Below are positions 1,165 through 18,902 of a stretch of DNA of 64,000 nucleotides, one piece after another. Made by a program: the position numbers and the translations under genes. Numbering within the stretch: the first letter of the stretch is position 1; the number at the start of each line of letters is the position of its first letter. Under the pieces are notes generated by a model, which saw only the letters and a list, made by a program, of their open reading frames with translations, had not been told where the DNA came from and searched no databases. This DNA comes from Escherichia coli (GTDB lineage: Bacteria > Pseudomonadota > Gammaproteobacteria > Enterobacterales > Enterobacteriaceae), in the NCBI RefSeq assembly GCF_030013205.1, contig NZ_CP122648.1; one strand, written 5' to 3'.

Positions 1165-1183
1165 TCGTTGCGTTGGTTATCTG

Positions 1184-2326: not shown

Positions 2327-2430
2327 TTTTGCTCCTTTGTATGTGGTACGCATACATAGTATTTAGGTACGCATTGATAGTCAATAGATACCTACATATC
2401 CTGTGGTAAAAAATTATTCAGGATGCGCCG

Positions 2431-2682
2431 ATGTCTGATCGTAAGTACAAAAACCCTCAAGTGAATCTGAGGCTTCCTGTAGAGATAAAGGAACGTCTTA
2501 TTGAACTGGCTGAGGCTAATTCTCGTTCATTAAATGCTGAGATGGTCGCAGCACTTGAAGCATGGACCGAAAAAAACAAACACATTCAAGCACTAGATCT
2601 TGCAACTATAGCATCGCGACTGATAGAGCTTGAGCATGATGTTGAGAAGTTAAAATGCATGCATGGCAATGGTGAAAAATGA
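2431..2682 (+). CDS. mnt: Mnt-like ribbon-helix-helix repressor
   Basis: 83 aa; N-terminal NLRLPVEIKERLIELAEANSRSLNAEMVAAL resembles the recalled P22 Mnt RHH motif; divergent from arc-ant. Confidence 0.7.
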   Translation: MSDRKYKNPQVNLRLPVEIKERLIELAEANSRSLNAEMVAALEAWTEKNKHIQALDLATIASRLIELEHDVEKLKCMHGNGEK

Positions 2683-2996
2683 AACGTATCGCTATCCTAT
2701 TGCTCCTGTGTCTCTCGAGCATAGCTAACGCAGAAACAAAATCAGACGATAGCAGTTTTGATGAAATACAAGGCCTCATGATAGCTTCGAAAATGGCTGG
2801 TATGTGTGGTGCAATCAAACAAATGGCAATATTCCAAGAATCTACAAACATGCCGGGTGGGAATGAATTCTTGCAGAGATTCCTTACTACAGAGCAAGCA
2901 AGGCTTGGGATGACTCCGCAGCAATTTCTTGAAGCATGTCAGAAATCAATCTCTATTTATACCACCTATTACAATATGAGCTCTGAGAAAAAATAG
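2679..2996 (+). CDS. Secreted protein of unknown function (moron)
   Basis: 105 aa with a signal peptide MKRIAILLLLCLSSIANA. Its ATG overlaps the mnt stop (ATGA). Confidence 0.55.
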   Translation: MKRIAILLLLCLSSIANAETKSDDSSFDEIQGLMIASKMAGMCGAIKQMAIFQESTNMPGGNEFLQRFLTTEQARLGMTPQQFLEACQKSISIYTTYYNMSSEKK

Positions 2997-3005
2997 ACTA
3001 GGATT

Positions 3006-3191
3006 TCAACAACTTCCGCGTCCCTGAGTAATTCTGTCGCGGATTTGCTTCTTACGGTGATTTAAGCTGGAGAGTTTGGCTTCTGCTTCTGATATTTGCG
3101 CATCCAGATCTTTAAGTTCAAGCTCTGAAAGTCGCTGGTCAAGCAGGGTTTGGTTTAACTCAATGTTGTTCAGACGTTCTTCTATAGTCAT
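3006..3191 (-). CDS. Small coiled-coil protein, hypothetical
   Basis: 61-aa ORF with AAGGT RBS; Leu/Glu heptad-rich sequence. Confidence 0.35.
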   Translation of the reverse strand: MTIEERLNNIELNQTLLDQRLSELELKDLDAQISEAEAKLSSLNHRKKQIRDRITQGRGSC

Positions 3192-3216
3192 ATTGTTACC
3201 TTAGTGGGAGATTAGT

Positions 3217-3441
3217 ATGATTTCTGCTATTTTATCGGTGCTGCTAGCGTCATTATTCATCGGAGTGGTGTTGATCTCCCCGATGCCAATAATATCAATA
3301 TTATTCATCTTGATGATCGGCTGGTTGTGGCTTAAAAAGGCAAGAAACGATTATTTTTTATCCATAAGAGATAAGCAATTAGAGCTTTTCCGCTTGGGGT
3401 ACACTGGCGACTTGCCATTCTTAACATACCAAAAAAAGTAA
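3217..3441 (+). CDS. Small membrane protein (2 predicted TM helices), hypothetical
   Basis: 74 aa, hydrophobic N-terminal two thirds and basic tail; GGGAG RBS; followed by a terminator hairpin. Confidence 0.5.
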   Translation: MISAILSVLLASLFIGVVLISPMPIISILFILMIGWLWLKKARNDYFLSIRDKQLELFRLGYTGDLPFLTYQKK

Positions 3442-3447
3442 TAATCA

Positions 3448-3470
3448 AGCCGGTTCACTCCGGCTTTTTG
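3448..3470 (+). terminator. Intrinsic terminator after the 74-aa membrane protein gene
   Basis: Hairpin AGCCGG-TTCACT-CCGGCT followed by TTTTT. Confidence 0.5.
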
Positions 3471-3820
3471 ATATGTCGCTCGCAGAACTCAACAAGCCTG
3501 CTCATTAAGTAGCAGTAAGTCTCGTTGGCTCTTCCTGGTTCAACATCAACACCTACCCTTGAGCAGATATCGAATGCCATGTGAGCGCACTCATGGGCAA
3601 TAGTAGATAGTTTGCCATTGAACACGCCTATCACATGCAAAACACCATTCTCGCTACTCATTGTATGAGACGCTCCGTTGGCGTCCGAGTCATGCACGTC
3701 AACGCCAAGTTTTTGATGCAGGCGTTGCCATTCTGGAAAGTCTCTACAAAACACAATTGTACCGCTCTCAAAGAGCGGAACGAGCATCTTTGGTACGTTT
3801 CCAATGTTAACTTTTTTCAT
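3455..3820 (-). CDS. Small HExxH-motif protein, putative zinc metallopeptidase-like (moron)
   Basis: 121 aa containing IAHECAHMAFD (HExxH) and several Cys/His residues; AGGA RBS. No homolog recalled. Confidence 0.55.
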   Translation of the reverse strand: MKKVNIGNVPKMLVPLFESGTIVFCRDFPEWQRLHQKLGVDVHDSDANGASHTMSSENGVLHVIGVFNGKLSTIAHECAHMAFDICSRVGVDVEPGRANETYCYLMSRLVEFCERHIKKPE

Positions 3821-3850
3821 GGTATCCTGCGCAAAACTAAGGAGGTTGGT

Positions 3851-4039
3851 GTGAAGAAAAAATTTGTAAACGTTGCAAAGTGCGCAATTTTTATATTTTT
3901 TATGACCTTTTACGGATTTAGTGCCGGAGAAGGTTTCGATCGTGATGCCAATGCATTCAGTTTCTTTTGTCTGTCTATAGTGGTCATAATTGTATGGGTG
4001 GAATTAAAGCAAACATTGTTTCATGTGCTAGGGAAATAA
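3851..4039 (+). CDS. Small membrane protein (about 62 aa, GTG start), hypothetical
   Basis: Strong RBS AAGGAGG 5 nt before GTG; two hydrophobic segments (AIFIFFMTFYGF, FFCLSIVVIIVWV); AT-rich. It is the 3' part of track ORF 3635..4039. Confidence 0.4.
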   Translation: MKKKFVNVAKCAIFIFFMTFYGFSAGEGFDRDANAFSFFCLSIVVIIVWVELKQTLFHVLGK

Positions 4040-4056
4040 CCATCCATGGCTTTCCG

Positions 4057-6321
4057 TTACTTCTGGTTATCATCACTGTTCATCCAGTACATGATGCCTA
4101 GCCTTGATATGGTTTTCTTATCTGATTCTGGAAGTGAGTTGTAAAACGAGCGCCAAGCAGAAGAGCGTCTTACAGTTGTATCAACGATGCTTTCTGGTGC
4201 TTGTTTTACTGCCAGCCTTGCTGCTTTCTGGAATTCTGGTGAGCTAATTAGCTTTTCTGCAGATTCAATTGATTCAGCGCCGCCCATCGCCCTGATTTTG
4301 CTGGCGACTTTTGCCCCAATTTCTGACCCAGCAACAGCACCTACTGCACTGAACGGTCCTGACACAGTTGAACCAACCGCAGTGCCAATGCGTTGGGCAT
4401 GGTTAGCAACAAATTCATTTGCCGCAGTGACGCGATTAAACCGTTTGACGAACTCGTTTAGTCTTCCTGTAGTTATCTCGTAAGATTTTGCGTCTTTGAT
4501 AGCCTTTGCGACCTTATATACATCGTTCAGACCTGACATAGTCTCTTTTGGTAAATGTCGGGCAAGATTGCGCATCTGCCCGTTTGCTAACATGTTTTGA
4601 TACCAGTCAGCAAACCCTGCAGGATTAAAATCAGCGCCACGTTTTCCGTTCGAAAGCATATCCCGAAGACCTGTTCCCAGTAGCTCGGTTCTTAGCTTCC
4701 TGGACGGCGTGTTTTGCATCAATTCACGAAATCCTTTGGCATCGCCTTTCGACATTGCCTGTAGTGCTGTAGTTGCTTTGCGAGAAACATCACCGTTCAG
4801 CGTTCTGCCAGTTAGATTAATCATTTGCTCTTCCATGCTTTTTCGCATCTGAACAAGCCTCTGAGCAACTTCAAAATCACGTAATGCATTTGTCTCTGAC
4901 AGCGCCGCCTTTTGATCATCGGCGAGCGAACCGTAAAGCCTCGATAAAGCAGCGCGATCAGCATCTTTATATGGTCCAGAATTCTTATGAAGTGCATCAC
5001 CAACAAGTCGTCGTTGCTTATTGAGATTTGCATAAGTTAATGCGCCGTTCTTGCCTGGATTAATTGCCCGAAAGACTCTCTTTTCAATAGGGTCAAGGTT
5101 TTTCATCCCGCCAAGATCTTCTGCCACCTGTTTGAGCATTGACCTTGTTGATGGCGCATCAATTTTTGCACCTGCAGGCATCGCCTTTTCAACATTGCGA
5201 TAAAGCTGGTCGCTTCGTTTCATCAGCGCAGACATTCTTCCATTGACCGTATCAATAAACTTGTCGCTCATACCAAGAGCATCTTTTGCACCGGAAACGC
5301 GATCAATTATCTCCCCCGCGCCCTGTGCTAGCTGCCTGATTGCTTCATTTTCCTGCACCTGTAGAGCAGAACCCGCACGGGACTTGATTGCTTGCTCAAC
5401 TGCCTTGTATTGCTCGTTCCCGGAAAAGTGTGAAGGGAGTAATGAATCAACATTAAGCCTTTCAGCAGACTCCAGAACTTCAGCCTGAGGATTGATATCT
5501 AGTTCATCAAGCGATGAAGCGAGATTTGGCCTTTTTTGTGCTGCTACTGTGCGAACGACTTCCTCTGGGTTCCTCGTCGCAGGAGTCATTGGTACACCTT
5601 GTGCTGCTCTTGCCTCTGCGGCATGAACCGCAGGATTTGTTGCCTCTGCGGCATCACCGGAGAATGGTGATGTTTCTGTTGGCGCAGTGGTCGCTCTCTG
5701 TGCAGATGTTTTATTGCCACTAATTATATTTGATGCACCACGAACACCACGGGTAACGCCATTTATCAGGCCATGCGTAGCAATGTTAAGTCCGGCATTA
5801 ATAGCGGCATTTTCGGCAAAATCACCCTCCTGATTTGCAGCATCAGCAAGAGAACCTGCAATCATGTTTCCTGCGGAACCGATGTCTCCTGCGAGCTTTG
5901 CTGGCGCTCCAGCAACTTTTGCCGCTGTGCCAATTGGCAGGAGATACCCACCAATTGTTTCACCGGCTTGCGCCCAAGGGTCTGTCGGTCGATCGACAGG
6001 GCGATAAACATCATCCAAAACCTTGGGGCCACCAAGCCCCTGGCTGATTGCATTAATCAGACTTGCGCCACCCTGCAATACGTCAAATGGTATGTTTACC
6101 AGACCACGACCAGCCTGTTCTGCAATTTGCCCTGCGCTTTGACCACCAGTGAGCCAGTCAGTAGCTTTTCCCACCAGAGATTGTTCTTCTGGCTGCGATT
6201 GGTTTTGAGTGGATTGATCACCAGAAGACAGCATCTGAGCAATGCGACGTGCTCCCTCAGTATCGCCGGCAGCATCAGCATTCCTTAACGCCGTCATCAA
6301 CTGTTCACGACTATAGGCCAT
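4057..6321 (-). CDS. DNA ejection/transfer protein (P22 gp16-like by synteny)
   Basis: 754-aa ORF directly downstream of the gp20-like gene; Gly/Ala-rich segments. Confidence 0.7.
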
Positions 6322-7706
6322 TACTGCTCTCCGAGATATTTGCTAATTAATTCGTCATCGGACAATTGCTGTTGAGGTTGGCTATCGCCATAACTTGAGG
6401 AAAGAAAACGTTTTGCCGCAGAGTTCAATGACTCACCCTTCTTAACATCCATCCCCATGATGTTTCGGTTGCGATCAGATTGTCCTGGGCTGCCATTTGC
6501 ACTCATCCACTCTGACTTAAACTCGTTGAACTTCGCGTTATTACTTTCCATTTTTGCCATACCCCTTAACCATCGAGCCATGACCATTGGATTATCCGTT
6601 TCGCTTGGAATGCCTTTCCTTGCAAACTCAATATCCTTATCTGATGCAGGGCCGGGAGGGAGAAGCTTGGTTGCCTGCGCATTGGCTAGTTGGTTGAATC
6701 TAATCCGCATATCTCGGAGGTAGTTATCTTGCCCCGTAAGCTTAGAGAACATATTTTCAGCGTTACCGAACAAACCAGGAGTTGGCTTCTCCTTCTCCAG
6801 CGTGTCAGCGAGCGTTGTCATTGAATCGGCAGCATTACGACTAGCTGCCGCATCACCTGCTGATTTTTCTATAGCCTTTTCCATGTTCACTGATAATTTT
6901 GGCGCTGCATTAATAAGTTTCTCGGCCTTTTTTTGTGCCTGTTGTACTTCAAAACCGAATTTCTGCTTATCAAGTGCCAGTCTTTCTGCTGCAAGTCCGT
7001 GTCCGGTCATTGCAGACTGATAGGAAAGGTTTTGCCCCCTAATAGCCCTCGCATTCGTCATGTCATTATTGCGAATGGTTTCGTTAATTCTTTGCTGTTC
7101 CTGCTGGCGACCAACCATCTTATCCTGAACAGCAAACGCCTTTTCTGGTCCAAGCGCACCGAGAGACATAGTAGTCAGCATGTGTGATAGCTGCTCTGGA
7201 TTCTGGATACCTGTCTGAATCATCCAGTCAGCATTAGCACCAACGCGATTTAACCTGTCCTTGTTGTCAGTAATGAATTTACTGTAGGCTTCCGGCCCCT
7301 GAGAAAGAGCGACGTTAGCTCTCATGGCTAAATCGCCCATATCGTTGCGTTGCTGATCATTAAGACCTGAAAAAGCCTGTTGTGCCTGTGCAACAAACGC
7401 TGGATTTTCCTGGGCAAACTTAAATAGTCCCGATGGATCACCAGAAGCCCATGCATCAGCGTGAACCTTATTGAACGCCCTAATCGCTTTCTGTTGCTGT
7501 TCCTGCTTATAAATATCAGCAACTCCAGCCAGACCACGTAACGCGGTCAGACTAACGTTATTTGCACCTGATCGAGACAGTTCATTGTTTTCGCGGATCA
7601 GACCAAGCGTTGCATTAATGTCGCTTGCCTTTGGCGCATTCTCGTTTTGCGCACCAATGCCAGCCAGAAAACCACCAGAATTAATACCCTGTTGCCACGT
7701 AGCCAT
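6321..7706 (-). CDS. DNA ejection/transfer protein (P22 gp20-like)
   Basis: 461 aa, the size of P22 gp20, in the gp7-gp20-gp16 order. Confidence 0.7.
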
Positions 7707-7716
7707 TGATTACCCC

Positions 7717-8409
7717 TTAAAACAGTGAACCAAGCAGACCAAGACCAGCACCGATACCAGCACCCCACGGAGTTGATAGCTCGAGAGCACTGGCTATGCC
7801 ACCACCCAAAAGCGCACCGGATGCAGCACCACTAACCCCCTGCTGCAATGCTGACGGTCGGTTGGCATTTGCCGCAGCCAGCGCCGCGCTTTGCTGTGAA
7901 ATCTGACTCATGTTGTTGGCATATGTTTGCCCGGCGTTTGCCTGCCCCTGAAGAGCGCCAAGACCGATATTTGCCAGGTTGTTGTAATTGTTCATTTGTC
8001 CAGATAGCCATTGCTGACCAAGCGTTGGTGCGATTGTTGCTAACTGATTACTGGTTGCGGTGGAACCCAATCCACCTGTTGCTTCCGCTGCCGCAAGACT
8101 CTGATAGCGAGCCTGACCTGAAAGGTCTTTATACTGCTGAGAGTTGTAATACTGGTTAAGTGCCTGACCTTGCCCTTCCAGAGACGATAAGTTCTCGAGG
8201 CTGCCGACATACTTATCAGCCAGAGGAGTAAACGGCTTCAGGTTGTTCATGATGGTGTTGAACTGCTGATTTTGCAGGTCTGCTGCATACTTCTGAGCTT
8301 CTGCGGCATACTTTGCACTTTTATCAGAACTGCCACCTTTCCCGCCTTTTTCAGGGCAATAAGGTTCCTCGCCGCGCAGTTTTCTGCCCAGCTTAAATGC
8401 ATATAACAT
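7717..8409 (-). CDS. DNA ejection/transfer protein (P22 gp7-like)
   Basis: 230 aa starting MLYAFKLGRKLRGEEP with a Gly-rich C-terminus, recalled as typical of P22-like gp7. Confidence 0.7.
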   Translation of the reverse strand: MLYAFKLGRKLRGEEPYCPEKGGKGGSSDKSAKYAAEAQKYAADLQNQQFNTIMNNLKPFTPLADKYVGSLENLSSLEGQGQALNQYYNSQQYKDLSGQARYQSLAAAEATGGLGSTATSNQLATIAPTLGQQWLSGQMNNYNNLANIGLGALQGQANAGQTYANNMSQISQQSAALAAANANRPSALQQGVSGAASGALLGGGIASALELSTPWGAGIGAGLGLLGSLF

Positions 8410-8411
8410 GG

Positions 8412-8870
8412 CTATCTCCCGTGCTTCAGGAAGTCGATTAGTTCTTCGCGTGTGGCGCTGTAAAACGTCACGTCATCCACGCCTTTGAAGTATTTCTTGA
8501 TGGTTCCTACACGCTTAAGGCCAATCATTGCGCAGTACATCTGCCCGTGGCGGAATTTGCGTGCAGCGAACGATGTGACGCACTGAACGGTGGTGTTAGT
8601 CAGAATGTATCGCCAGAACGCCAGCCCGATTTCCTTGCTGAAGCCGCGAATCTCTGGCAGGTACATGGCGTGGCAATCAAAGGTCAGCGGCTGAATCTCC
8701 TGATAGTAAACAATTCCGCCGAACTGCCCGTGCACGTTCACCTCAAAGTAACGGCATTCAGGCTTGTAGTCGTATCCATCGCCGTTGTTGCTCCCGGCGA
8801 TAATGTCAGGGTGATTTCCTACTGCTTCGATCAGGTCGATGTTTCGCGTTGGTTTGAAATGAATCATCAC
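8412..8870 (-). CDS. Phage protein between needle and ejection genes (gp14 position)
   Basis: 152-aa ORF, start overlapping the needle gene stop. Assignment is by synteny only. Confidence 0.5.
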
Positions 8871-9688
8871 TGCTCCGCGATTATCTTGATGGTTGTGGCA
8901 GTAAACGCCGCACCATTCGACTGAATGGTTAACGTGCTGCCATTTGTGGCAAGAAAGCCGTCTTTATCCACGCTGAAGAACGTAGCTAACAGGATGTTGT
9001 CGGTTGTTGTCGCTGAGTTGCGACTGCTTACCAGTGTGTCAGGAACAGAACCGGAAAATGTTAGCTGCATTGACCTGTTGGCGGTTCCGCTGGGCCACGT
9101 CCCGACGATCGACAGCTTGAAGAACAAGGTTTTGTTCTCGTTGAACACAACCATCTTGTTGTTAACGGTGTCGAAGAATGGTGCCAACGTGCCGGATGAC
9201 GGCGTGAGCGTTTTCAGCAGGCTAACAAGGTTGGTAGGCGCTGTCGGAATTGTTACCGATACCCCTGAGTAAACAACCTCTGATTTCTTGCGCGTGGTGG
9301 CATACTCAAGCGCAGATATTCTTGTTGCGTGATCACCAACTGTGCTTTGTAGCGTCGAAATACTTCCCTCTGCCGCTGTGAGCCTGGTATCAAGTGCGTC
9401 GATATCGGTTGTATTCTGAGTTATGCGCGCATCATGGTTTGCTAACTCAGATTCATTGGCAGCAATTCGCGTATCGTGATCAGCCAGCTCTGTTTCAGCA
9501 GCCGTAATCCTTGTTTCATGATCTGCAAGAGTGCTTTCCGCTGTTGCAATTCTATGTTCATGATTGATGAGAGTTGCTTCAGCAGCTTCAATTCTGGATT
9601 CATGGTCTGCAAGGGTGACATCCTGCTCATCGTTCCTAACCTGTGCATCATAAGCGCCCTGTCCGGCCTCGTTGGCTTTGTTAGCCAC
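8867..9688 (-). CDS. Tail needle (P22 gp26-like) with coiled-coil repeats and C-terminal knob
   Basis: GTG at 9688. [20 protein letters not shown] and ADHESRI heptads match recalled gp26. The frame stays open upstream to the coat stop, encoding [30 protein letters not shown] (gp26 N-domain-like) with no in-frame ATG. Confidence 0.75.
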
Positions 9689-9838
9689 GTTACCAACATC
9701 AGTGCCCTGTGCGATAACGTAAAGCAGATACGACTGCGAGAAGATATTGCGTGGAAGGACTGATGTGTCGAGCCGTGTAGAGCATTGTTCGTGCCATTGT
9801 CTTCTCCCAATAAAAATGGGGCCGAAGCCCCACCAAAA

Positions 9839-11092
9839 TTACTGCCCGGCAATAACGATGCCCGTATATTCAGGAACAAGTACAGAGCAACCGTACAGAG
9901 TGGTGAAACGCGCAGTGGTTACGCCTTTGATGTGGTCGAAGGCGTAAGACATGATCAGCGTAGCGCCCTGCTCGGTGGTTGCTGTCATTACCTGTGGACC
10001 CTGACCAGTCGGGAACGCCAGTTTGCCGTACATCAGCTCAACAGAACCATCAGCCCAGAACAGGTTGGCCGGTGCGGCATTCTTGTTGAGAATGGTGATT
10101 GCTGCGCTACTTGCCGCGTTAGCATCAACGTTTGCATATGGTCGGCTGGCGACATCCGCGTTGTCAGGCGGCAGAATTTTCGGGGAGATAGTTACTGTCG
10201 TTCCGCTTACTGCCAGAACGCGGAATACCTGCGGCTGCCCGGTGGTATCTTTGGTGATCTGGTGTACGGAATTAACCCCTGCAATGGTAAACGCATCGCC
10301 AACCTGCAAACCTTCAGCAGATACCGTAATGGTCCCCTGTCGGTTATCCACTGGCATATCGTTAGCATCTTTCGCTTCAACCTTGTGCGCAGGTGCTGCT
10401 GCCAGCGTAATGGAAGTTGCTGTACCCTTCGGAACACGACCAGAAATATCGGTCTTGTAGCTATCGAAGGACGCAACAGGAGGGATCTGCGCTTTTTCGT
10501 ATGCTGTCAGGGTTGCGCCCTGAGCATAGGCACGGTGACCAAGCTCGCCAGCAAGGTCTTTGTAGTTGAAGGGGTTCCAGAAAGAGCGACGATTGATACC
10601 CTGCGGTACACCAATCGCCGTCATGGTGGCATCAATACCTGCCGCACAGTTCCACAAATCACGGCCCTGTGTACCTGTGGTTGAGTCAGCCATCGTGATC
10701 ACGTTAGTAGCACGCTGCGTGACCATGGAAATCAGGTCCGAGTCAATCTGTGCAGCAAGGCGCATACCTGCGGCGCGACCAGCTTCAGTTTTATGTTCCG
10801 GGTCACGCATTTCACGCGCATCCAGAGTGTACAGAATGTTTTTCGGCTCCTTGAACACAGAAGGAACAAGGCGCTGAACCAGTGCTGTTGGCGTTTTGCT
10901 GCTGAGGTCGAGGCCTTCCTCAATGTTCATGTGGTAATGCTGCGGACGATACAGAACATCACCTGCTCGCTGCATTGCTGTATCACCGGGACGGAATTTT
11001 TTAGCGTTACGGGAAACTACGCAGGCGGCCTCAAAGCCTTCAACGTAGTTTTCGAACATGATTTCAAGGTCTTTTGCTAATTGGTTAGCCAT
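9839..11092 (-). CDS. Major capsid (coat) protein, P22 gp5-like
   Basis: 417 aa following scaffold; C-terminal region similar to recalled P22 coat. Confidence 0.8.
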   Translation of the reverse strand: MANQLAKDLEIMFENYVEGFEAACVVSRNAKKFRPGDTAMQRAGDVLYRPQHYHMNIEEGLDLSSKTPTALVQRLVPSVFKEPKNILYTLDAREMRDPEHKTEAGRAAGMRLAAQIDSDLISMVTQRATNVITMADSTTGTQGRDLWNCAAGIDATMTAIGVPQGINRRSFWNPFNYKDLAGELGHRAYAQGATLTAYEKAQIPPVASFDSYKTDISGRVPKGTATSITLAAAPAHKVEAKDANDMPVDNRQGTITVSAEGLQVGDAFTIAGVNSVHQITKDTTGQPQVFRVLAVSGTTVTISPKILPPDNADVASRPYANVDANAASSAAITILNKNAAPANLFWADGSVELMYGKLAFPTGQGPQVMTATTEQGATLIMSYAFDHIKGVTTARFTTLYGCSVLVPEYTGIVIAGQ

Positions 11093-11110
11093 GCTTAATG
11101 CTCCGATAGG

Positions 11111-12004
11111 TTATTTTTTTGCCTTTTTAGCGGCGAAATACGGCGTCCAGTCACCAGTTTCCAGCGCCTTGGCTTTCAGTTTGTCGAGGTTATTGATTAC
11201 TGCGCCGTTGCTCCCCTTAACTGTCGGGGTTGTGGCTGCCGTGGTTTTTGCTTTTGGCATGATTCTGGCCTTCGATTCGATACGTTCCAGCAGACGACCA
11301 ATTGCTACGGGGTTGGTAGCTTCTGCCAGTTGCTTGCGCAGTTCAGCGTTGCGACCGAGCGCCAGAACAACGATTTCCGGCTTCTCTGACTCAAACAGGA
11401 TCGCGTTTTGTGTCTCGATGGGGATTTCCTCGAGTACGGCCTGTTCTGCTTCCTGATAGCCAGGAACCTTGAGAGCCTTAACACGTTGCTGATATTTGGA
11501 TAATCGCTCTTGATAGGCAGCCTGAAGCTCCTGCTCCTTCTGCTTGCGAGCCATCTCCTGTTGCTGGTACTTGCCGTTATCCTCTGCCCACTTAGCCATG
11601 CGTTGCTGATAGATTTCTTCATCGAAACCGATGTCCTCATCATCCAGTTTTGGCATTCGCGGTGGTTGAGTGATTACCGGCTGCTGCTCGACAGGTTTCT
11701 GAGACTGACGCATCAGCTCTTTCAGCTCGCGGTCTTTCTCTTTAATCGTCTTGCGCAGGTGTTTTACCAGTCCATGCTCTGCGCTATCTTCACTGGTTGG
11801 CGAATCCAGCTTTTCGTCACCAAAGTAGAATTCCTGTTCTGATTCGTCGTCATCAGTTTCAGTAGCTTCCTCTGCATCATTGCCGGAGGACTCACTGCCA
11901 TCTTCTGTTTCGACTTCTTCAGCCAGTTCGACATCATCAGGAATCTGCTCTGATGTATCGGTTTCGATTTCAACTTCTGGTGTGTTTTCTGCCATCTGGT
12001 CCAT
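11111..12004 (-). CDS. Scaffolding protein
   Basis: 297 aa, highly acidic N-terminus, Lys/Glu-rich helical protein between portal and coat. Confidence 0.8.
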   Translation of the reverse strand: MDQMAENTPEVEIETDTSEQIPDDVELAEEVETEDGSESSGNDAEEATETDDDESEQEFYFGDEKLDSPTSEDSAEHGLVKHLRKTIKEKDRELKELMRQSQKPVEQQPVITQPPRMPKLDDEDIGFDEEIYQQRMAKWAEDNGKYQQQEMARKQKEQELQAAYQERLSKYQQRVKALKVPGYQEAEQAVLEEIPIETQNAILFESEKPEIVVLALGRNAELRKQLAEATNPVAIGRLLERIESKARIMPKAKTTAATTPTVKGSNGAVINNLDKLKAKALETGDWTPYFAAKKAKK

Positions 12005-12094: not shown

Positions 12095-14293
12095 TTACTG
12101 CTGTGGTTGTTGCTGAGTTGATTTTTGCAGGATGCTGCTGATGTCCATGCGCTGCGCATGGCCCTGTGCCTGACTTTTCAGGACAAGCTCTGCATCAGCA
12201 CGGGCATTGTCTCCTTGCTGTTGCTGGAACTGTCCGAGCAGTTTCAGCGCCTCACGGATATCAGATTTCTGCTGACTATCGGCAGATGCGAGTATTTTCA
12301 CAACATTTGCCGCTGCAACCTGAGCATCAGTCTGTGCCTGGAATGCTTTAACCTGAATGGCTGCCTGTTCGTTCTGCGCTTTCTGCAATTCAGCCTGACC
12401 AGCAAGAAGCTGACCTTGCGCTGCAACCATAGCCGGATCTGGCTGACTGGCCTGTTGTTGTTTCGCCTGTTCAACCATCTGCTGTTCTTCTGGCGTTCTC
12501 GGCTTGATAACTCCAGACAGAAGCAACTGATTGCGGTTGTATTCTTTAAGGTCGTCCATCCCTTCGCCGTCCATATTGTCGAGGATCATCGACGATACAA
12601 GGTCGTGTTTCGGCGTTCCGGGCGGGATAAGTGCCAGCATGGAAAGTAACGACTTAACCGTTGCATCACGGCGAGTAGCGAACGACTGACCAACATCGAC
12701 AGTCACTTCATAGTTACCCTGCGAAAGGTCGTTAAGCGCGATAACCTGCCCTGTCTGACGGTCAACCACTTCACCAGTCATCAGCGCCACGTCATCGCTG
12801 CCGTCCTCATTAACGATACGCATCGGCGTATCACTGCCATAGACCTCACGCGCCATAGAAAGCCACACAACGCCAGCGCGACGCATGGATTTAGCCATGT
12901 TGTCCATGTAGATATAGGACTGCGTGTCCATCCGGTTAAAAATGCTATCAACGGTATCGGTGGCGACGTTGCTCGGCATGTTCTCAAGCTGCGACGCACC
13001 TGTAATTTGCTGAATAGCCGTTCCGGTGTACTGCAATAGCCCGGCAAGAGCTGGAGGCATTTGTGTCGGAGGCGTATAACTGCTGACCTGAGCCTGCGCA
13101 GTAATATCTCCGTTTTTGTTTTTCAGACTGACCATCGGCAGGAACGCCGGGCGCTTTTTGTTGCGCTCCGCCCAATGAGTGGCGAGAGGACCAGGAATCA
13201 TGTCAACATCAACTACAGGAATGCCATCACCGCCAGCCTGAGTAGCGTTATCTGCAATCATGGAAACCATCAGGTTCTCAAGACGCTGTGCATCCATCGC
13301 TTTTGCTGCGTGACCTTCGATTCGCTCCTGATTATCAACAAATGATCGACGCCCATATACCGGGATGAGAGGAATATGTTCGCCCGGAATACGCTTCGGT
13401 TCTTCCAGCCATTCAGCGCCAGACAGAAGACCGCAATAAACGCGGCGCTTCTTCACCGTTCGCTCGCCAATCAGTTCGAATGCACCATCGGTCAGCTCGT
13501 CGACAATATCTTTGATTTGCTCTTCATCATAAATTGCCGTTTCTCCGCTAACAGGGTTGCGCCACGCCGTGAGCTTCACCTTCTCTATGCGAACTTCGTA
13601 GTAGCGTCCAACATAGATGGCATCGGGCGTTGACCAGTCATACTGAGTACCAGTGTCATCACGAGAAAGGCTTGCTGCGATGGAATCAGGGTATTCAGCC
13701 TCGAACGCTTTGGGCGTCATGGAGAACATTTCCATAGCCCACATAGCATCAGAGCGGTCATATTGCTTGCTGTCCTGATCGAAGAAGACGCATGTCGCTG
13801 GGTCGTAAACAGGAAGAAGGCTGATGCGTCGCTGCTCGTTACTCGGATCCATTTCATCTTCGTAATCGGCACACATGCGGAAACAACCGAATCCGCCCGT
13901 TACAGCATCATCAAATGCGTTATCACACGCTTCACCACCGGATGTTTCCTGATAGTCAGCGCGGAATTTACCATTCATCTTTTCGGCTAACGCTTCCGAT
14001 GCCTTATCGTCCTTCGGCCTGAATTTAACGCTGATGCGATTCTGTCGATACTCGCCAATGATGCGATCACATTCACGGGCAATCTTATTCAGTTCAAAGC
14101 GCGGGTAATGCTCAAACCTGCCTTCATCAAATGAGTAACCAGCGTTTGTGCTGCCTTCCCACTGTGCGCCGGATACCCGGACGAAACGTTGAGCCTCAAT
14201 AATCTGCTCACGCATATCCTGCGTTGCTGACCAGGCATTATCAAAGTTGCACAGCACCTTGCGATGCCAGTCAGTCATCTTTTTTTCTGCCAT
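12095..14293 (-). CDS. Portal protein, P22 gp1-like
   Basis: 732 aa; C-terminal PRTPEEQQMVEQAKQQQASQPDPAMVAAQGQLLAGQAELQKAQNEQ closely resembles the recalled P22 portal barrel region. Confidence 0.9.
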   Translation of the reverse strand: MAEKKMTDWHRKVLCNFDNAWSATQDMREQIIEAQRFVRVSGAQWEGSTNAGYSFDEGRFEHYPRFELNKIARECDRIIGEYRQNRISVKFRPKDDKASEALAEKMNGKFRADYQETSGGEACDNAFDDAVTGGFGCFRMCADYEDEMDPSNEQRRISLLPVYDPATCVFFDQDSKQYDRSDAMWAMEMFSMTPKAFEAEYPDSIAASLSRDDTGTQYDWSTPDAIYVGRYYEVRIEKVKLTAWRNPVSGETAIYDEEQIKDIVDELTDGAFELIGERTVKKRRVYCGLLSGAEWLEEPKRIPGEHIPLIPVYGRRSFVDNQERIEGHAAKAMDAQRLENLMVSMIADNATQAGGDGIPVVDVDMIPGPLATHWAERNKKRPAFLPMVSLKNKNGDITAQAQVSSYTPPTQMPPALAGLLQYTGTAIQQITGASQLENMPSNVATDTVDSIFNRMDTQSYIYMDNMAKSMRRAGVVWLSMAREVYGSDTPMRIVNEDGSDDVALMTGEVVDRQTGQVIALNDLSQGNYEVTVDVGQSFATRRDATVKSLLSMLALIPPGTPKHDLVSSMILDNMDGEGMDDLKEYNRNQLLLSGVIKPRTPEEQQMVEQAKQQQASQPDPAMVAAQGQLLAGQAELQKAQNEQAAIQVKAFQAQTDAQVAAANVVKILASADSQQKSDIREALKLLGQFQQQQGDNARADAELVLKSQAQGHAQRMDISSILQKSTQQQPQQ

Positions 14294-14294
14294 A

Positions 14295-15710
14295 TCAACC
14301 TACACCACAAGGAATTGAGTAACTGGAATAGTCGGGTTGCGCAGCCGACTCTGGGCAATGCATACACATCATCAGCGCATCAGCCAGGTTAGGAGATGGA
14401 ATACCGAGCTTCTGCTTCATTTCGACCTTAGTCATAAGCTCCAGCTTCCCGTTGTTATTGAATTTGCGCTGAATCTGCGTCAGTTCTGCAAACAGCTTCT
14501 CCAGCATCTTCTCGCCTATCGCTTCTTTGTCAAAACTCAGCATGTCGTCGGGGTCCGCATACTCACCGTGAACAACCGCCCGATATGTCAGATACAGCCT
14601 GTCAGCCAGCGCGTAATAGAATTGCGCTCGCTTATTGCGGAATACATCGCCAATAGTGCGAACGTTGTCGCCCTGTACGGCTTCATCAGCCCATGCTCCG
14701 GCCTGATAAGGCGAATCTTCATCAAATGGCGATTCGCTGCCCTTGAACATCGTGGCGGTGATTTTCTTACCGGAGAACGCTTCCGCTGTCTGTCTGCGTA
14801 GACCTGCACCAACACCATCACCATCCCACAGGTAATGGTCAGCGCCGTCTTCAATAGCCAGCGAAGTAGCCCAGTCAGCACCCTCGTTGATGTCCATCAG
14901 CAGGCCTTCGGCAATGCGCTTAACAACCGAACCGTGACGCGATGCATAACCTTTAGCATCTGGCCCTGTATCTGATGGGTCATGTGCAGAAACAACCGCG
15001 CCTTTCGCTTTCCATCCGAGTTTCTTGTGCGCATCGGTTGCGGCTTCAAGCCATTCACGTTTGATGATTGCCATATCACTTGCGCTTACTGGCTCACCAA
15101 GCCAGATGTGACGATACAGTGTCTGATTTCTGCGTTTACACTCTTCCATCTCCAGACGGAGAACTTCAGGAAAATGCGGGTTGTCGGTGTAGTTCACCGT
15201 CAGCAGGCAAATATCATCGGGAGGATTTACAACGAATCGCTGATAGGTATCGTCGAGGATGTTCTTCGGGTTAAAGCTCACCCATATTTCGGAAAACGGC
15301 TTGCGGATGGTTGGTATCAGGATGTCCCATGATTCCTTTGTTACCGCTTCCGCTTCTTCCACCCAGCAGATATCAATGCCTTCTAGCGATTTAATCTTCG
15401 TTGGGTTGTTTTTTATGCCGTAGAACATGAATTCAGCATTCGTTCCGAGATGACGAATCATTGAACGCTGAATTTCAAACTCAGCCGAATACCCTTCACG
15501 CTCGATGGTGTCTTCAAGCAACCGGATTACCGAATCGCTGATACTGTTTTGCAGTTCACGAGCGCAGAGAATACGCACAGGCTGCCGACGCGCCGCTTCA
15601 ACAAGCAGCCTCGCAATTGCCCATGACTTACCGCTACCTCGACCGCCTTTGGCGACTTTGTAGCGATGCGCCTCAATGAACGGTTCAAAGATAGGATTAA
15701 TCGAGGTCAT
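14295..15710 (-). CDS. Terminase large subunit
   Basis: 471 aa with Walker A-like KGGRGSGKS near the N-terminus; sits between terS and portal. Confidence 0.9.
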   Translation of the reverse strand: MTSINPIFEPFIEAHRYKVAKGGRGSGKSWAIARLLVEAARRQPVRILCARELQNSISDSVIRLLEDTIEREGYSAEFEIQRSMIRHLGTNAEFMFYGIKNNPTKIKSLEGIDICWVEEAEAVTKESWDILIPTIRKPFSEIWVSFNPKNILDDTYQRFVVNPPDDICLLTVNYTDNPHFPEVLRLEMEECKRRNQTLYRHIWLGEPVSASDMAIIKREWLEAATDAHKKLGWKAKGAVVSAHDPSDTGPDAKGYASRHGSVVKRIAEGLLMDINEGADWATSLAIEDGADHYLWDGDGVGAGLRRQTAEAFSGKKITATMFKGSESPFDEDSPYQAGAWADEAVQGDNVRTIGDVFRNKRAQFYYALADRLYLTYRAVVHGEYADPDDMLSFDKEAIGEKMLEKLFAELTQIQRKFNNNGKLELMTKVEMKQKLGIPSPNLADALMMCMHCPESAAQPDYSSYSIPCGVG

Positions 15711-16147
15711 TTTCCGAATAGAGTGCTCATCGGTGATGTTTCAATCTGAATTGCGCCGCCGTCTTTGCCTGTTAGCTCGTGATCAACCTTGTCGCGCCAT
15801 TTATCCTTCTGTCGGTTCTTAAGCCAGAAGATGGCAGCGGTTGTATCAGGCGGGTAATACTTCTCAAGCGGAGTTTCGACAATTCTGTTTTCAATAACAC
15901 GAATATCGATGTCTGGAGCCACGAAGCCCATAGCGCGTTGATAAAGACGATCACTAACTTCTGCATCAGCGACGGCCTTACCCTTTTTTATGGACTCCGA
16001 AAACTTAGGATAATCAATCTTCCACTTGTTAATAGTTGACTCACTGACTTCAAAGAAATCAGCAAGTTCTGCATCGGTGTAGCCCAGCAAGCACAGTTTG
16101 CGTGCCTGTTCGGCATACGCCTCTTGATACTTTGTTGGGCGCGCCAT
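15707..16147 (-). CDS. Terminase small subunit
   Basis: 146 aa with N-terminal HTH-like region, overlapping the terL start. Confidence 0.8.
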   Translation of the reverse strand: MARPTKYQEAYAEQARKLCLLGYTDAELADFFEVSESTINKWKIDYPKFSESIKKGKAVADAEVSDRLYQRAMGFVAPDIDIRVIENRIVETPLEKYYPPDTTAAIFWLKNRQKDKWRDKVDHELTGKDGGAIQIETSPMSTLFGK

Positions 16148-16149
16148 GT

Positions 16150-16392
16150 TTATGCTCCGGTGGTGAACAGGTCTAACGCTTCCTTCGATTTACGCACCGC
16201 TTCGATAGTGCGGGTCGTGATATCCGAATTAGCGCCGCCTGACTGGAAGTGAATTTTGAATAGTTCAAGCTTCAGCTCGTCAGTGCCAATGAACTGAAAT
16301 GCTTCTTCTGCGGCTGCGTTCTGGTTCATGACCAGTTTGTAAATCTCTAACTGGAATTTCTGTTCTTCAGTCATGGGAATAATCTCTGCCAT
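16150..16392 (-). CDS. Hypothetical phage protein upstream of terS
   Basis: 80-aa ORF tightly packed against terS. Confidence 0.45.
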   Translation of the reverse strand: MAEIIPMTEEQKFQLEIYKLVMNQNAAAEEAFQFIGTDELKLELFKIHFQSGGANSDITTRTIEAVRKSKEALDLFTTGA

Positions 16393-16495
16393 TGTTGGCT
16401 CCGTTTATCCGTTAAAAGGGATATCAGTTAAGTTATCCCGTGTAGGGTATAAGCCATTATCAAAGCCACTCTGTAGGGAATGGCTTTTGTAATAA

Positions 16496-16876
16496 CTACT
16501 GTTCGCTTAGCTTCTGCTTCAGCAAGTAACCTTCGAGCATCCAGATTTTGTTTACAGCATTCTGCCGGGCAATCTTCCGACCAATTTCTGCATCAAAGTT
16601 TTCCGGGCTTGCACAGGCACTCTCTCCGGTAACGGTGAAGCCATTCTTCAGCACCAGTACGCAGAAAGTGAGCAACTTCAATGGTGATAAATCACGATCG
16701 CCTTCTTCTGGTTTTTCCCTGCCACAATATTCGTTGCTGGAAATGGCACCATTTCGTCCATCATAAGCAGTAAAGTAATGCTCGCTTTTAATCACGTCTT
16801 CGATGTGCTGCGGGGTGATTCGCGGTGCCGTTTTGCCTTTCTCAACGATTTCTTTTTCGATTTGCTGGTCGTTCAT
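16496..16876 (-). CDS. Phage protein of unknown function (possibly Gp49/Sf6 gp66-like)
   Basis: 126-aa ORF between the lysis remnant and terS; family assignment is recalled from position only and is unverified. Confidence 0.5.
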   Translation of the reverse strand: MNDQQIEKEIVEKGKTAPRITPQHIEDVIKSEHYFTAYDGRNGAISSNEYCGREKPEEGDRDLSPLKLLTFCVLVLKNGFTVTGESACASPENFDAEIGRKIARQNAVNKIWMLEGYLLKQKLSEQ

Positions 16877-17114
16877 AATTATGACCCTGTGGAGTGGTTG
16901 CTTGATTAGGATGTCTTTCCATCAGTCCGCCACCACAAAGAATCTTTTTTGCCATAAGGCTGGAGGTTCATCTTTCAGTGGCTGCCAGTGTTATTTCCCC
17001 ACTTACTGGCTTGGGTTGTTTCGCTGTACTGCCGTAACTGGTTACCCAGAATAAATTTTGGTTTCATTATCAAGCCCATCCGTAGATAGGCTTTGTAATG
17101 AACTGGCTCTTATC

Positions 17115-17267
17115 TCAACGCAGCCCCTTACCGCGCGCCAGATGCTCAATATCAAGCATCAGCAATGAGATGTTTAATCTGGATTCACTCCAGAAGTGAT
17201 CACCACCCTGTCTACAGAGCCAGATGTGAAGGATGATGAGTAGAATTATCGCTATCATCGAAGGCAT
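17115..17267 (-). CDS. Possible small ORF (50 aa) downstream of Rz remnant
   Basis: Hand translation MPSMIAIILLIILHIWLCRQGGDHFWSESRLNISLLMLDIEHLARGKGLR with AGGA RBS; start overlaps the Rz stop. Could be spurious. Confidence 0.25.
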   Translation of the reverse strand: MPSMIAIILLIILHIWLCRQGGDHFWSESRLNISLLMLDIEHLARGKGLR

Positions 17268-17480
17268 TGCGTCCTGATGTACTCCTGCAGGTAGTTAACC
17301 TGCGCGGTTATCCTGTCGATTCCACTTCGGAGACGGTAATAATTGAGTTCAGCATCTGCTGTAAGTCTTGGGCTTTCTCCATCGCCCATGCCGCTGGCTC
17401 TGGTCGTTGACTTTGCACAGGTGGCGGCGACTTGCAGGCGCTTACGACCAGCAGAAACATCAGCACGGAGACTTTCGATA
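17255..17480 (-). pseudogene. Rz: Rz (i-spanin) remnant, C-terminal part only
   Basis: ESLRADVSAGRKRLQVAATCAKSTTRASGMGDGESPRLTADAELNYYRLRSGIDRITAQVNYLQEYIRTQCLR aligns with the recalled lambda Rz C-terminus. The upstream part of the ORF has no Rz-like TM/N-terminal region and overlaps xis antisense. Confidence 0.65.
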
Positions 17481-17499
17481 TCGAAGCAGAGGACATCAA
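17308..17499 (-). CDS. Rz1: Rz1-like o-spanin lipoprotein, embedded in Rz frame +1
   Basis: Signal peptide with lipobox (LLVVSAC) followed by a proline-rich segment KSPPPVQSQRPEPAAW; the true start may be an internal Met. Confidence 0.65.
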   Translation of the reverse strand: MMSSASISKVSVLMFLLVVSACKSPPPVQSQRPEPAAWAMEKAQDLQQMLNSIITVSEVESTG

Positions 17500-17587
17500 C
17501 GACTGCTATAACCACTGGATGATATGGGCGCAGATAGCGCATGCAGACGTAACAAATATTCGAATTGAAGAACTGAAAGAACACCAA

Positions 17588-17608
17588 ACCGCCTGATGGC
17601 GGTTTTTT
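17588..17608 (+). terminator. Terminator-like hairpin upstream of xis
   Basis: ACCGCC-TGAT-GGCGGT followed by TTTTTT. Confidence 0.4.
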
Positions 17609-17635
17609 CTTGCGTGTAATTGCGGAGACTTTGCG

Positions 17636-17854
17636 ATGTACTTGACACTTCAGGAGTGGAACGCACGCCAGCGGCGCCCAAGAAGCCTTGAAACAGTTCG
17701 TCGATGGGTACGCGAGTGCAGGATATTCCCTCCTCCGGTTAAGGATGGAAGAGAGTATCTGTTCCACGAATCAGCGGTAAAGGTTGACTTAAATCGACCA
17801 ATAACAGGTAGCCTTTTGAAGAGGATCGGAAATGGGAAGAAGGCGAAGTCATGA
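17636..17854 (+). CDS. xis: Excisionase, lambda Xis-type
   Basis: 72 aa, MYLTLQEWNARQRRPRSLETVRRWVRECRIFPPPVKDGREYLFHESAVKVDLNRPITGSLLKRIGNGKKAKS matches recalled lambda Xis; overlaps the int start. Confidence 0.93.
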   Translation: MYLTLQEWNARQRRPRSLETVRRWVRECRIFPPPVKDGREYLFHESAVKVDLNRPITGSLLKRIGNGKKAKS

Positions 17855-18902
17855 GCGCCGGGATTTACCCCCTAACCTTTATATAAGAAACAATGGATAT
17901 TACTGCTACAGGGACCCAAGGACGGGTAAAGAGTTTGGATTAGGCCGAGACAGGCGAATCGCAATCACTGAAGCTATACAGGCCAACATTGAGTTATTTT
18001 CAGGACACAAACACAAGCCTCTGACAGCGAGAATCAACAGTGATAATTCTGTTACGTTACATTCATGGCTTGATCGCTACGAAAAAATCCTCGCCAGCAG
18101 AGGAATCAAGCAGAAGACACTCATAAATTACATGAGCAAAATTAAAGCAATAAGGAGGGGGCTACCTGATGTTCCACTTGAAGACATCACCACAAAAGAA
18201 ATTGCGGCAATGCTCAATGGATACATAGACGAGGGCAAGGCGGCGTCAGCCAAGTTAATCAGATCAACACTGAGCGATGCATTCCGAGAGGCAATAGCTG
18301 AAGGCCATATAACAATAAACCCGGTCGCTGCCACTCGCGCTGCAAAATCAGAGGTAAGGAGATCAAGACTTACGGCTGACGAATACCTGAAAATTTATCA
18401 AGCAGCAGAATCATCACCATGTTGGCTCAGACTTGCAATGGAACTGGCTGTTGTTACCGGGCAGCGAGTTGGTGATTTATGCGAAATGAAGTGGTCTGAT
18501 ATCGTAGATGGATATCTTTATGTCGAGCAAAGCAAAACAGGTGTAAAAATTGCCATCCCTACAACATTGCATGTTGATGCTCTCGGGATATCAATGAAGG
18601 AAACACTTGATAAATGCAAAGAGATTCTTGGCGGAGAAACCATAATTGCATCTACTCGTCGTGAACCGCTTTCATCCGGCACAGTATCAAGGTATTTTAT
18701 GCGCGCACGAAAAGCATCAGGTCTTTCCTTCGAAGGGGATCCGCCCACCTTTCACGAGTTGCGCAGTTTGTCTGCAAGACTCTATGAGAAGCAGATAAGC
18801 GATAAGTTTGCTCAACATCTTCTCGGGCATAAGTCGGACACCATGGCATCACAGTATCGTGACGACAGAGGCAGGGAGTGGGACAAAATTGAAATCAAAT
18901 AA
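17832..18902 (+). CDS. int: Tyrosine integrase, lambda Int-type
   Basis: 356 aa, near-identical to recalled lambda Int from MGRRRSHERRDLPPNLYIRNNGYYCYRDPRTGKEFGLGRDRRIA to HLLGHKSDTMASQYRDDRGREWDKIEIK. Confidence 0.95.
   Translation: MGRRRSHERRDLPPNLYIRNNGYYCYRDPRTGKEFGLGRDRRIAITEAIQANIELFSGHKHKPLTARINSDNSVTLHSWLDRYEKILASRGIKQKTLINYMSKIKAIRRGLPDVPLEDITTKEIAAMLNGYIDEGKAASAKLIRSTLSDAFREAIAEGHITINPVAATRAAKSEVRRSRLTADEYLKIYQAAESSPCWLRLAMELAVVTGQRVGDLCEMKWSDIVDGYLYVEQSKTGVKIAIPTTLHVDALGISMKETLDKCKEILGGETIIASTRREPLSSGTVSRYFMRARKASGLSFEGDPPTFHELRSLSARLYEKQISDKFAQHLLGHKSDTMASQYRDDRGREWDKIEIK

Follow-up and report, generated by a model that had tools for sequence, protein, structure and literature searches.

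A predicted Acb4-family sponge cassette and a DUF2560 gene at the lysis–packaging junction of a decayed P22/Sf6-like prophage

The Acb4 protein of phage SPO1 is a tetrameric sponge that sequesters 3′3′-cGAMP and related CBASS signals (Chang et al., PMC11722364). The family has been defined as PF13876 and comprises 1,331 homologues; 3′3′-cGAMP was bound by all eight of the homologues that were purified, 3′3′-cAA was bound in addition by homologues from phages of Gram-negative hosts, c-di-GMP was bound by none, and confident AF3 tetramers were obtained for eight of eight homologues (Chang et al., PMC11722364). The Acb4 protein of phage N4 behaves in E. coli as a cyclic-nucleotide sponge and is there both necessary and sufficient to trigger Panoptes (PMC12657230), and in other phages Acb4 domains bind 2′3′-cAA and further signals. 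N4 gp48/49 (Acb4) and Sf6 gene 66 are the namesakes of PF13876. In N4-like phages, Tad2, Acb4, Sequestin-type sponges and unknown genes gather in a fixed anti-signalling slot (2026 preprint). In P22, cargo has been documented ‘between orf25 and orf80’, where the pid moron is inserted; in related phages this site is empty or holds another insert (Cenens et al. 2013).

Here, we describe two small genes, of 126 and 80 codons, that lie at 16,150–16,876 in a window of 64,000 nucleotides (the whole stretch of DNA that was analysed) whose sequence matches the chromosome of E. coli ETEC4079 at 100% identity. Our preferred account, to which we give a probability of roughly 0.75, is that both belong to the late operon as accessory genes and are unrelated to each other, one being an Acb4 sponge cassette and the other a DUF2560 gene, and that both are probably silent in this strain. 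In an intact phage, Acb4 would be made alongside the late proteins, and its homotetramer would bind the cyclic dinucleotides of CBASS (3′3′-cGAMP and, judging by the family, probably signals of the c-di-AMP type), so that sequestration would spare the infected cell from death by the CBASS effector. The cassette occupies a slot for cargo that is flanked by the lysis genes and DUF2560; DUF2560 itself, dispensable for growth in the laboratory, is the invariant final gene ahead of the packaging module. In ETEC4079, both genes would persist as intact relics, available to incoming phages via recombination.

Layout of the locus and state of the prophage

Both ORFs start with ATG and lie on the minus strand, which the earlier note, made from the sequence alone, had left unstated; its coordinates and lengths match the list of ORFs exactly, and the flanks are those it described, with a remnant of Rz/Rz1 upstream and terS and terL downstream (table 1). 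The note had also called the two ORFs tightly packed with the terminase genes. This description fits the 80-aa gene, since the terS ATG at 16147 lies 2 nt past its stop codon, and fails between the two ORFs, which are parted by a spacer of 103 nt with a strong hairpin. The Shine–Dalgarno sequence of terS, GGAG, is embedded in the last codons of the 80-aa gene, to which terS is translationally coupled; the 80-aa gene is preceded by a GGAG ribosome-binding site of its own. In P22, HK620 and Sf6, a further small gene (orf59c, hkbN and gene 68, respectively; 59–63 aa) intervenes before terS, whereas DUF2560 abuts terS both here and in CUS-3. RefSeq names the products of the two genes ‘Gp49 family protein’ (126 aa) and ‘DUF2560 family protein’ (80 aa), while the PGAP label of the CUS-3-type terS is ‘hypothetical protein’.

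Table 1. Features at and around the two small genes, in window coordinates.
Feature	Coordinates	Strand	Evidence or remark
P22-type portal	12095..14293	-	Downstream of terL
terL	14295..15710	-	PF04466 Terminase_3, E 7.6e-41
terS, CUS-3 type, 146 aa	15707..16147	-	phrog_309 E 1.5e-67; same gene annotated terS in CUS-3
DUF2560 gene (PF10834), 80 aa, acidic, predicted four-helix	16150..16392	-	Pfam E 1.1e-43
Hairpin H2, directly after the Acb4 stop	16456..16493	-	Inverted repeat I4; -20.6 kcal/mol, z -5.8
Acb4-family gene (PF13876 Phage_gp49_66), 126 aa, predicted cyclic-dinucleotide sponge	16496..16876	-	Pfam; Table S3 of Chang et al.; AF2/Foldseek
Acb4 cassette, 413 bp: gene and 33-nt leader with weak ribosome-binding site	16497..16909	-	blastn, junctions read
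Conserved backbone segment, 130 bp, upstream of the cassette	16910..17042	-	blastn
Hairpin H1, look-alike of H2, directly after the gene-65-like ORF	17063..17102	-	Inverted repeat I1; -21 kcal/mol, z -5.6
50-aa ORF, Sf6 gene 65-like, overlapping the Rz end	17115..17267	-	RefSeq; Sf6/epsilon34 annotation
Rz/Rz1 remnant, 3′ part only	17255..17480	-	PF03245 on the C-terminal part only; RefSeq: both pseudogenes
Lambda-type xis (17636-17854) and int (17832-18902), adjoining ybhC	17636..18902	+	PF07825 Exc E 5.9e-40; RefSeq

The prophage that carries these genes is a decayed P22/Sf6-like element, flanked by ybhB and ybhC at the lambda att site. The block of xis and int is its attL end. Position 17480 is where homology to Sf6, P22 and ST64T breaks off, and the Rz remnant forms the left edge of a deletion; because xis and int directly adjoin this remnant, the entire early region has been lost, including any late-gene activator or late promoter. 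Decay extends to the structural genes of the same prophage, in which the needle gene comes straight after the capsid gene and a gene for one of the ejection proteins is a pseudogene. A crude consensus scan of 15600–17900 found no sigma-70-like promoter. Rfam gave no match in the region, and the terminator-like matches from a scan of 15600–17900 were unconvincing. With the early region gone, along with any late activator or late promoter, both genes are intact but probably silent in ETEC4079, where they are likely to be inert relics.

The 126-aa protein as a member of the Acb4 family

The 126-aa protein matches PF13876 at E 3.4e-35 and 120.8 bits (cut-off 27) over positions 1–82 of the profile, which is its full length; SPO1 Acb4 matches the same profile at 35.5 bits. 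Its sequence is identical to A0A0H2Z1H7 from E. coli APEC O1, which is listed in Table S3 of Chang et al. (PMC11722364) together with Sf6 Q716B1. The product of Sf6 gene 66 is a single residue apart (D3G), and comparison of the gene with those of Huey and Sf6 gives seven nucleotide differences in synonymous codons and one in a non-synonymous codon. More distantly, the protein is 45% identical to N4 Acb4 over 109 aa and approximately 24–28% identical to SPO1 Acb4. A phmmer search of PDB sequences returned one meaningful match, the SPO1 Acb4 structure 9e4w (E 0.007). Relatives that are 71–73% identical to the 126-aa protein occur in fusion proteins with a Tad2 domain (PF11195) or a Sequestin domain (PF21825), and fusions of this type have been the Sorek laboratory’s route to new sponges.

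On grounds of family membership, the 126-aa protein is with high confidence an Acb4-family anti-CBASS sponge, its binding of a ligand being predicted. The gene is thus not new, as it is already catalogued as an Acb4 homologue, and its presumed sponge activity is assigned from the family. The earlier description of genes at this position as poorly characterised does not hold for this one, given its family and the presence of its exact sequence in Table S3, and it does hold for the 80-aa gene, which encodes a DUF2560 protein. For the ‘126-aa hypothetical’ or ‘Gp49 family protein’ of many E. coli and Shigella prophages, the correct label is predicted anti-CBASS sponge.

The predicted structure agrees with this assignment. 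An AlphaFold2 (AF2) monomer built on an alignment of 27 sequences reaches a pLDDT of 91.6, with helices at residues 22–28 and 96–125 and strands at 29–36, 69–76 and 81–87. It reproduces the fold of SPO1 Acb4, in which helices at the N terminus precede an antiparallel sheet of three strands and the C-terminal region is long and helical. When this model was compared with the PDB by Foldseek, the best 13 matches were all chains of 9e4w, with a probability of 1.0 and target-normalised TM scores of 0.60–0.74. The two proteins therefore share a Pfam family and a core fold in which one helix and three strands are joined by a long helix at the C terminus; the Phe that stacks on the base and the segment F-x-x-x-I-G-R are also common to both, and both are borne by a phage or prophage. 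Unlike SPO1 Acb4, the 126-aa protein has an N-terminal extension of 20 residues and a helical insertion of approximately 30 residues (37–68) between beta1 and beta2, in place of the SPO1 hairpin that bears K36. An insertion between beta1 and beta2 is found in N4 Acb4 as well. The two genes differ in their setting: N4, a lytic phage, carries its gene in an anti-signalling hot spot of early/middle timing, while the 126-aa gene comes from a temperate P22-like phage, as a cassette in the late operon, and now sits in a dead prophage.

The residues that line the SPO1 pocket are conserved in part. The contacts of SPO1 Acb4 with 3′3′-cGAMP were mapped as K36, F48, E49, V56, Y57, F62, N63, I66, T70 and K81. 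Alignment mapping indicates that the stacking and hydrophobic platform is retained, with SPO1 F48, F62, I66, G67 and R68 corresponding to F80, F94, I98, G99 and R100. The residues specific for base and phosphate are changed (K36 to L68, E49 to T81, Y57 to A89, T70 to I102 and K81 to M113); V56 is replaced by C, and N63, a backbone contact, by D. Some variation among the specificity residues is to be expected, because Gram-negative members of the family also bind 3′3′-cAA. With about half of the SPO1 contacts changed and an insertion at the site of K36, the range of ligands could nevertheless differ.

The same region differs between alleles. In phage vB_EcoP-611R6, whose allele encodes 112 aa, both ends of the gene are 100% identical in DNA to the 126-aa allele, while codons 16–85 or thereabouts are only 3–60% identical, which is an intragenic swap that spans beta1, the insertion and beta2. 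Because the position of a SPO1 ligand contact falls inside the swapped segment, we infer that this segment may tune specificity; judged from these sequences, the middle of the Acb4 gene may act as a specificity module whose exchange retunes which immune signal is bound.

These observations raise the alternative that the protein has kept the Acb4 fold and changed its target, either to another signal or to something else, such as the target implied by the label ‘anti-CRISPR protein’ that the Huey record gives to its homologue. The difference at five of ten SPO1 contacts, the insertion at the point where K36 contacts guanine, the swap of residues 16–85 (approximately) between otherwise identical alleles and the binding of 2′3′-cAA and other signals by Acb4 domains of other phages are all consistent with such a change. 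It is countered by the binding of 3′3′-cGAMP by eight of eight diverse homologues (PMC11722364) and by the behaviour of N4 Acb4, which is 45% identical, has the beta1–beta2 insertion and still acts as a cyclic-nucleotide sponge. The anti-CRISPR label, moreover, looks like an automatic transfer, because in Huey it is also carried by the adjacent Tad2-like gene (PF11195). We consider a changed target unlikely, and the reading of the 126-aa protein as a predicted sponge of CBASS signals is retained below.

The Acb4 cassette and the cargo slot

The Acb4 gene sits in a cassette with exact boundaries. The sequences on either side of it (17042–16910 and 16496–16152) are contiguous by blastn in HK620 (L005 2265–2398 then 2400–2741) and in P22 (L004 1667–1794 then 1796–1855), so the 413 bp between them constitute a clean unit of presence or absence. 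The backbone segment upstream is 97–98.5% identical to P22, HK620 and Sf6 and 91% identical to ST64T. The site resembles that of P22 pid, since the cassette lies only 60–90 bp or so from the pid site (between the equivalents of 16434 and 16406). Whereas pid is transcribed against the surrounding genes and brings a terminator with it, the Acb4 cassette has the same orientation as its neighbours.

To place the cassette among its relatives, a survey was made of 72 IMG/VR loci with an identical DUF2560 and a recognisable Rz upstream, which together with the present locus make 73. Full-length tblastn identity of DUF2560 was 100%, and the script matched its first 40 residues; many of the IMG/VR loci are near-identical prophages and are not independent of one another. 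Across the 73 loci, between 307 and 1916 bp separate DUF2560 from the end of Rz, and the gene-65-like 50-aa ORF, which has no Pfam match, is found in 47 of them. The slot holds KilA-N in 21 loci, Rha in 17, Acb4 in 16, a Tad2-like gene in eight (three of them together with Acb4), T5orf172 in seven and DUF551 in three; several loci have single unknown ORFs as cargo, and in seven the slot is empty. Acb4 is scattered over several terS types in these loci, and the cassette comes and goes independently of terS type.

The slot upstream of DUF2560 is thus a hot spot for cargo that includes Acb4, Tad2-like, Acb2/Tad1-like, Rha and KilA-N genes. At least one known immune-signal sponge is present in approximately 29% of the surveyed slots, a figure that comes from phylogenetically non-independent loci in which most cargo is not a sponge. 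Individual loci illustrate the variety: phage Huey carries a Tad2-like gene (PF11195) and Acb4 in tandem, Proteus phage Brookers has Acb4 beside a divergent DUF2560 of its own, and the slot of locus L015 holds a gene with an Acb2/Tad1 hairpin. In gathering Acb4, Tad2-like and Acb2/Tad1-like genes, the slot between Rz and DUF2560 resembles the hot spot of N4-like phages, from which it differs in phage group, boundaries, late-operon timing and a cargo that is mostly Rha, KilA-N and T5orf172. We found no literature linking P22-like phages or this slot to Tad2 or to an anti-defence hot spot in the library that was searched, which is incomplete. Because the slot repeatedly holds known immune-signal sponges, its unknown genes (e.g. 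the ORFs of 62–125 aa) are candidates for counter-defence.

Two similar hairpins, H1 and H2, mark this part of the locus (table 1), and the motif of H2 is specific to the slot. In the epsilon34 record, the homologue of gene 65 is followed by an annotated Rho-independent terminator roughly where H1 lies, a correspondence judged by position.

DUF2560 and the packaging module

The 80-aa protein belongs to a family that is already known, DUF2560. It matches PF10834 at 147.7 bits (cut-off 25) over positions 1–72 of the 72 in the profile and phrog_571 at E 2.3e-41. Identity is 98.8% with P22 ORF80 and 100% with HK620 hkbM, Sf6 gene 67 and epsilon34 gp69, all of which occupy the same genome position. 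The protein is acidic (pI 4.7), and its AF2 model has four helices at a pLDDT of 70. No helix-turn-helix or other DNA-binding motif was found in it, a search of PDB sequences gave nothing meaningful, and DUF2560 had no fold or profile match outside its own family. A search of the literature on DUF2560 and hkbM found no relevant paper.

Both genes are conserved in phages, with DUF2560 in 171 phage records and the Acb4 family in 640, contrary to the lack of conservation in P22-like relatives that the earlier note would have counted against them; its suggestion that genes at this position might be accessory factors is borne out, as both are accessory genes at the junction of lysis and packaging. 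The DUF2560 family is nonetheless small, with 93 clusters at 90% identity; a profile search found 73 representatives in 1.84 billion proteins, among which the few long matches are repetitive and no fusion is informative. The named carriers are Enterobacterales (E. coli, Salmonella, Shimwellia and Serratia, plus phages of Klebsiella, Shigella and Proteus), and most metagenomic matches are nameless. Two variants of the family were considered and rejected. A longer DUF2560 with an N-terminal extension appears in gene calls of 105–129 aa and was set aside because the extensions are mutually unrelated. A Sequestin-like sponge was not supported, as there was no PF21825 match at E≤1 and hhalign gave 0.5–0.7% against 1 and 3 sequences (a tiny template alignment); a word-index search for homologues with which to enlarge the Sequestin profile found none.

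Genes at this position have been suggested to encode packaging specificity, and one or both small proteins might be accessory or specificity factors of packaging that work with the small terminase. The position of DUF2560 is in keeping with this idea: it is always the last or nearly the last gene before terS, and where the terS is of the CUS-3 type, as here, the stop codon of DUF2560 lies 2 nt from the terS start, the ribosome-binding site of which it contains. The association does not extend to the type of terminase. The first large ORF downstream of DUF2560 was scored apart, in 76 loci with enough downstream sequence. A CUS-3-type terS follows in 30 loci, this one included, with a gap of 2 nt in 30 of 30; a P22 gp3-type terS follows in 22 loci (gap 29–198 nt), an Sf6/HK620-type terS in 14 (gap 79–200 nt) and other ORFs in 10, at varied distances. 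DUF2560 does not co-vary with terS type across these loci, and a 100%-identical DUF2560 adjoins at least four terS families, which are unrelated to one another.

More divergent members of the family extend this pattern. DUF2560 proteins of at most 40% identity occupy the same position before Terminase_2/Terminase_6, GP3_package and Terminase_3 modules, and in locus L099 a homologue precedes a lambda-type cos module (DUF1441 terS, GpA terL and Phage_portal_2; Nu1/gpA/gpB-like). Given such varied packaging modules downstream, DUF2560 is independent of the family of terS, terL and portal. At about 16152, exactly at the DUF2560 stop codon, the present locus ceases to be homologous to HK620, P22 and Sf6, and a mosaic boundary therefore lies there. 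The acidity of DUF2560 and its lack of a DNA-binding motif likewise speak against a packaging factor, as does, for the 126-aa gene, its place in a characterised immune-evasion family and its presence in just 16 of 73 loci. Nor is DUF2560 needed for growth, since P22 grows and lysogenises without orf80; a P22 delta(orf25-orf80)::KmR is viable too, in a paper that is ambiguous as to whether orf80 itself is gone. By its independence from terS type, the idea of packaging specificity is by now largely refuted for DUF2560, and for the Acb4 cassette, which varies independently of terS, it fares no better; we regard a packaging factor at either gene as very unlikely.

The junction with terS admits another reading, in which DUF2560 acts in cis: its translation would bring ribosomes to terS, and the protein itself would have no job. 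Coupling of this kind could operate through the terS Shine–Dalgarno sequence within the last DUF2560 codons and the 2-nt gap between stop and start. Phages of the P22, Sf6 and ST64T types, however, have one to three ORFs or 29–200 nt between DUF2560 and terS. Furthermore, comparison of the 80-aa gene with those of Huey, Sf6, P22 and HK620 finds 31 differing nucleotides in synonymous codons and one in a non-synonymous codon, which points to strong purifying selection on the gene and, from the ratio, to selection on its amino-acid sequence; homologues that are no more than 40% identical retain the conserved pattern of motifs. A purely cis-acting DUF2560 is highly improbable on this evidence.

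In our preferred account, DUF2560 is an accessory gene whose protein may matter to the phage outside packaging. That the protein is strictly conserved, dispensable and acidic and is encoded in this neighbourhood favours a role directed at the host, in counter-defence or host modulation, which we put forward with low confidence and at somewhat less than even odds; a non-essential role in packaging or assembly, or coupling purely in cis, would be less likely. The near-universal presence and fixed position of DUF2560 are unlike the patchy distribution that is typical of anti-defence genes, an observation that runs against the host-directed view. The tight coupling to terS seen here is also compatible with a role related to packaging.

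Two leads arise from the locus, namely DUF2560 itself, which is strictly conserved and yet dispensable, and the cargo slot as a hunting ground for new counter-defence genes. A broader and rather doubtful possibility joins the two, with DUF2560 as an unrecognised host-directed factor (e.g. an inhibitor of a widespread defence) and at the same time the downstream edge of a hot spot for sponges in the late operon, with a characteristic hairpin as its boundary. Under that possibility, DUF2560 would be the part kept by nearly all enterobacterial P22-like phages and by some lambda-like phages, beside a hot spot that gathers Acb4, Tad2-like and Acb2/Tad1-like genes.

Hairpins and small ORFs around the Acb4 cassette

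The interval between the end of Rz and the DUF2560 gene, here termed the slot, holds the Acb4 gene, which encodes a predicted cyclic-dinucleotide sponge. It also contains two strong hairpins, H1 and H2 (z approximately −5.7), which are look-alikes whose inner stems differ by compensatory changes (features are listed in the table). Both lack a U-tract. The hairpin motif, ATTACAAAGCC...GGCTTGATAAT, occurs 69 times across the 73 slots surveyed, versus twice in 539 kb outside them, and most slots with Acb4 carry two copies. Possible roles for these hairpins are as moron terminators, as elements that stabilise RNA, or as boundaries for recombination.

Features of the slot and of the adjoining terminase gene
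Feature	Coordinates	Strand	Remarks
Conserved 130-bp segment	16910-17042		Immediately upstream of Acb4 cassette
Hairpin H1	17063-17102	minus	Directly 3′ of gene-65-like ORF; −21 kcal/mol
Hairpin H2	16456-16493	minus	Directly 3′ of Acb4 stop; −20.6 kcal/mol
50-aa gene-65-like ORF	17115-17267	minus	Like Sf6 gene 65 and epsilon34 gp67
Small terminase (terS)	15707-16147	minus	phrog_309 terS match, E 1.5e-67; corresponds to terS annotated in CUS-3

The gene-65-like ORF, present in 47 of the 73 loci, overlaps the end of Rz and encodes a hydrophobic N-terminus; its product has no match in Pfam. The backbone segment bordering the cassette shows 97-98.5% conservation in P22, HK620 and Sf6, falling to 91% in ST64T. 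A small ORF begins inside this segment (MAKKILCGGGLMERH...), and its tail varies with the downstream sequence.

Mosaicism of Acb4 and DUF2560

Acb4 alleles are mosaic, as is seen when the gene in the window (16496-16876) is aligned with that of phage vB_EcoP-611R6 (L008 1997-2335). The DNA is 100% identical at nucleotides 1-45 and 271-381, with 3-60% identity between them; the divergent stretch (residues ~16-85) spans β1, the helical insertion and β2.

In HK97, HK544, HK75 and the mEp phages (matches H96-H105), DUF2560 is reduced to its first 27-28 codons (93-96% identity), located close to the right end in HK97-like genomes. The fragment is what remains of the same late-operon junction, and it places a mosaic breakpoint within the gene. 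A divergent homologue (P0223; comparison locus L099, 296-544) precedes a lambda-type packaging module (DUF1441, GpA and Phage_portal_2), and the family therefore extends beyond P22-type heads.

Prophage decay and the surrounding chromosome

The prophage is heavily decayed, as seen at ~17480-18902 and within 1-12000. Rz/Rz1 is cut off at ~17480 and fused to lambda-type xis-int next to ybhC; the whole early region is therefore missing. The tail-needle gene directly follows the capsid gene; of the ejection-protein genes, one is a pseudogene.

Elsewhere in the window (44360-46117), Rfam identifies the cpoB/ybgF thermometer and a five-tRNA cluster accompanied by two RtT elements; these are ordinary chromosomal features unrelated to the Acb4/DUF2560 pair.

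Database labels

The GenBank record of phage Huey (L001) applies 'anti-CRISPR protein' both to its Acb4 gene and to a neighbouring Tad2-like gene (382-762 and 997-1497; PF11195 in the latter, E 1.7e-24); these labels probably reflect automatic transfer and not evidence. The terS gene is a 'hypothetical protein' in RefSeq/PGAP, and a homologue in one phage record is named 'HNH homing endonuclease'.
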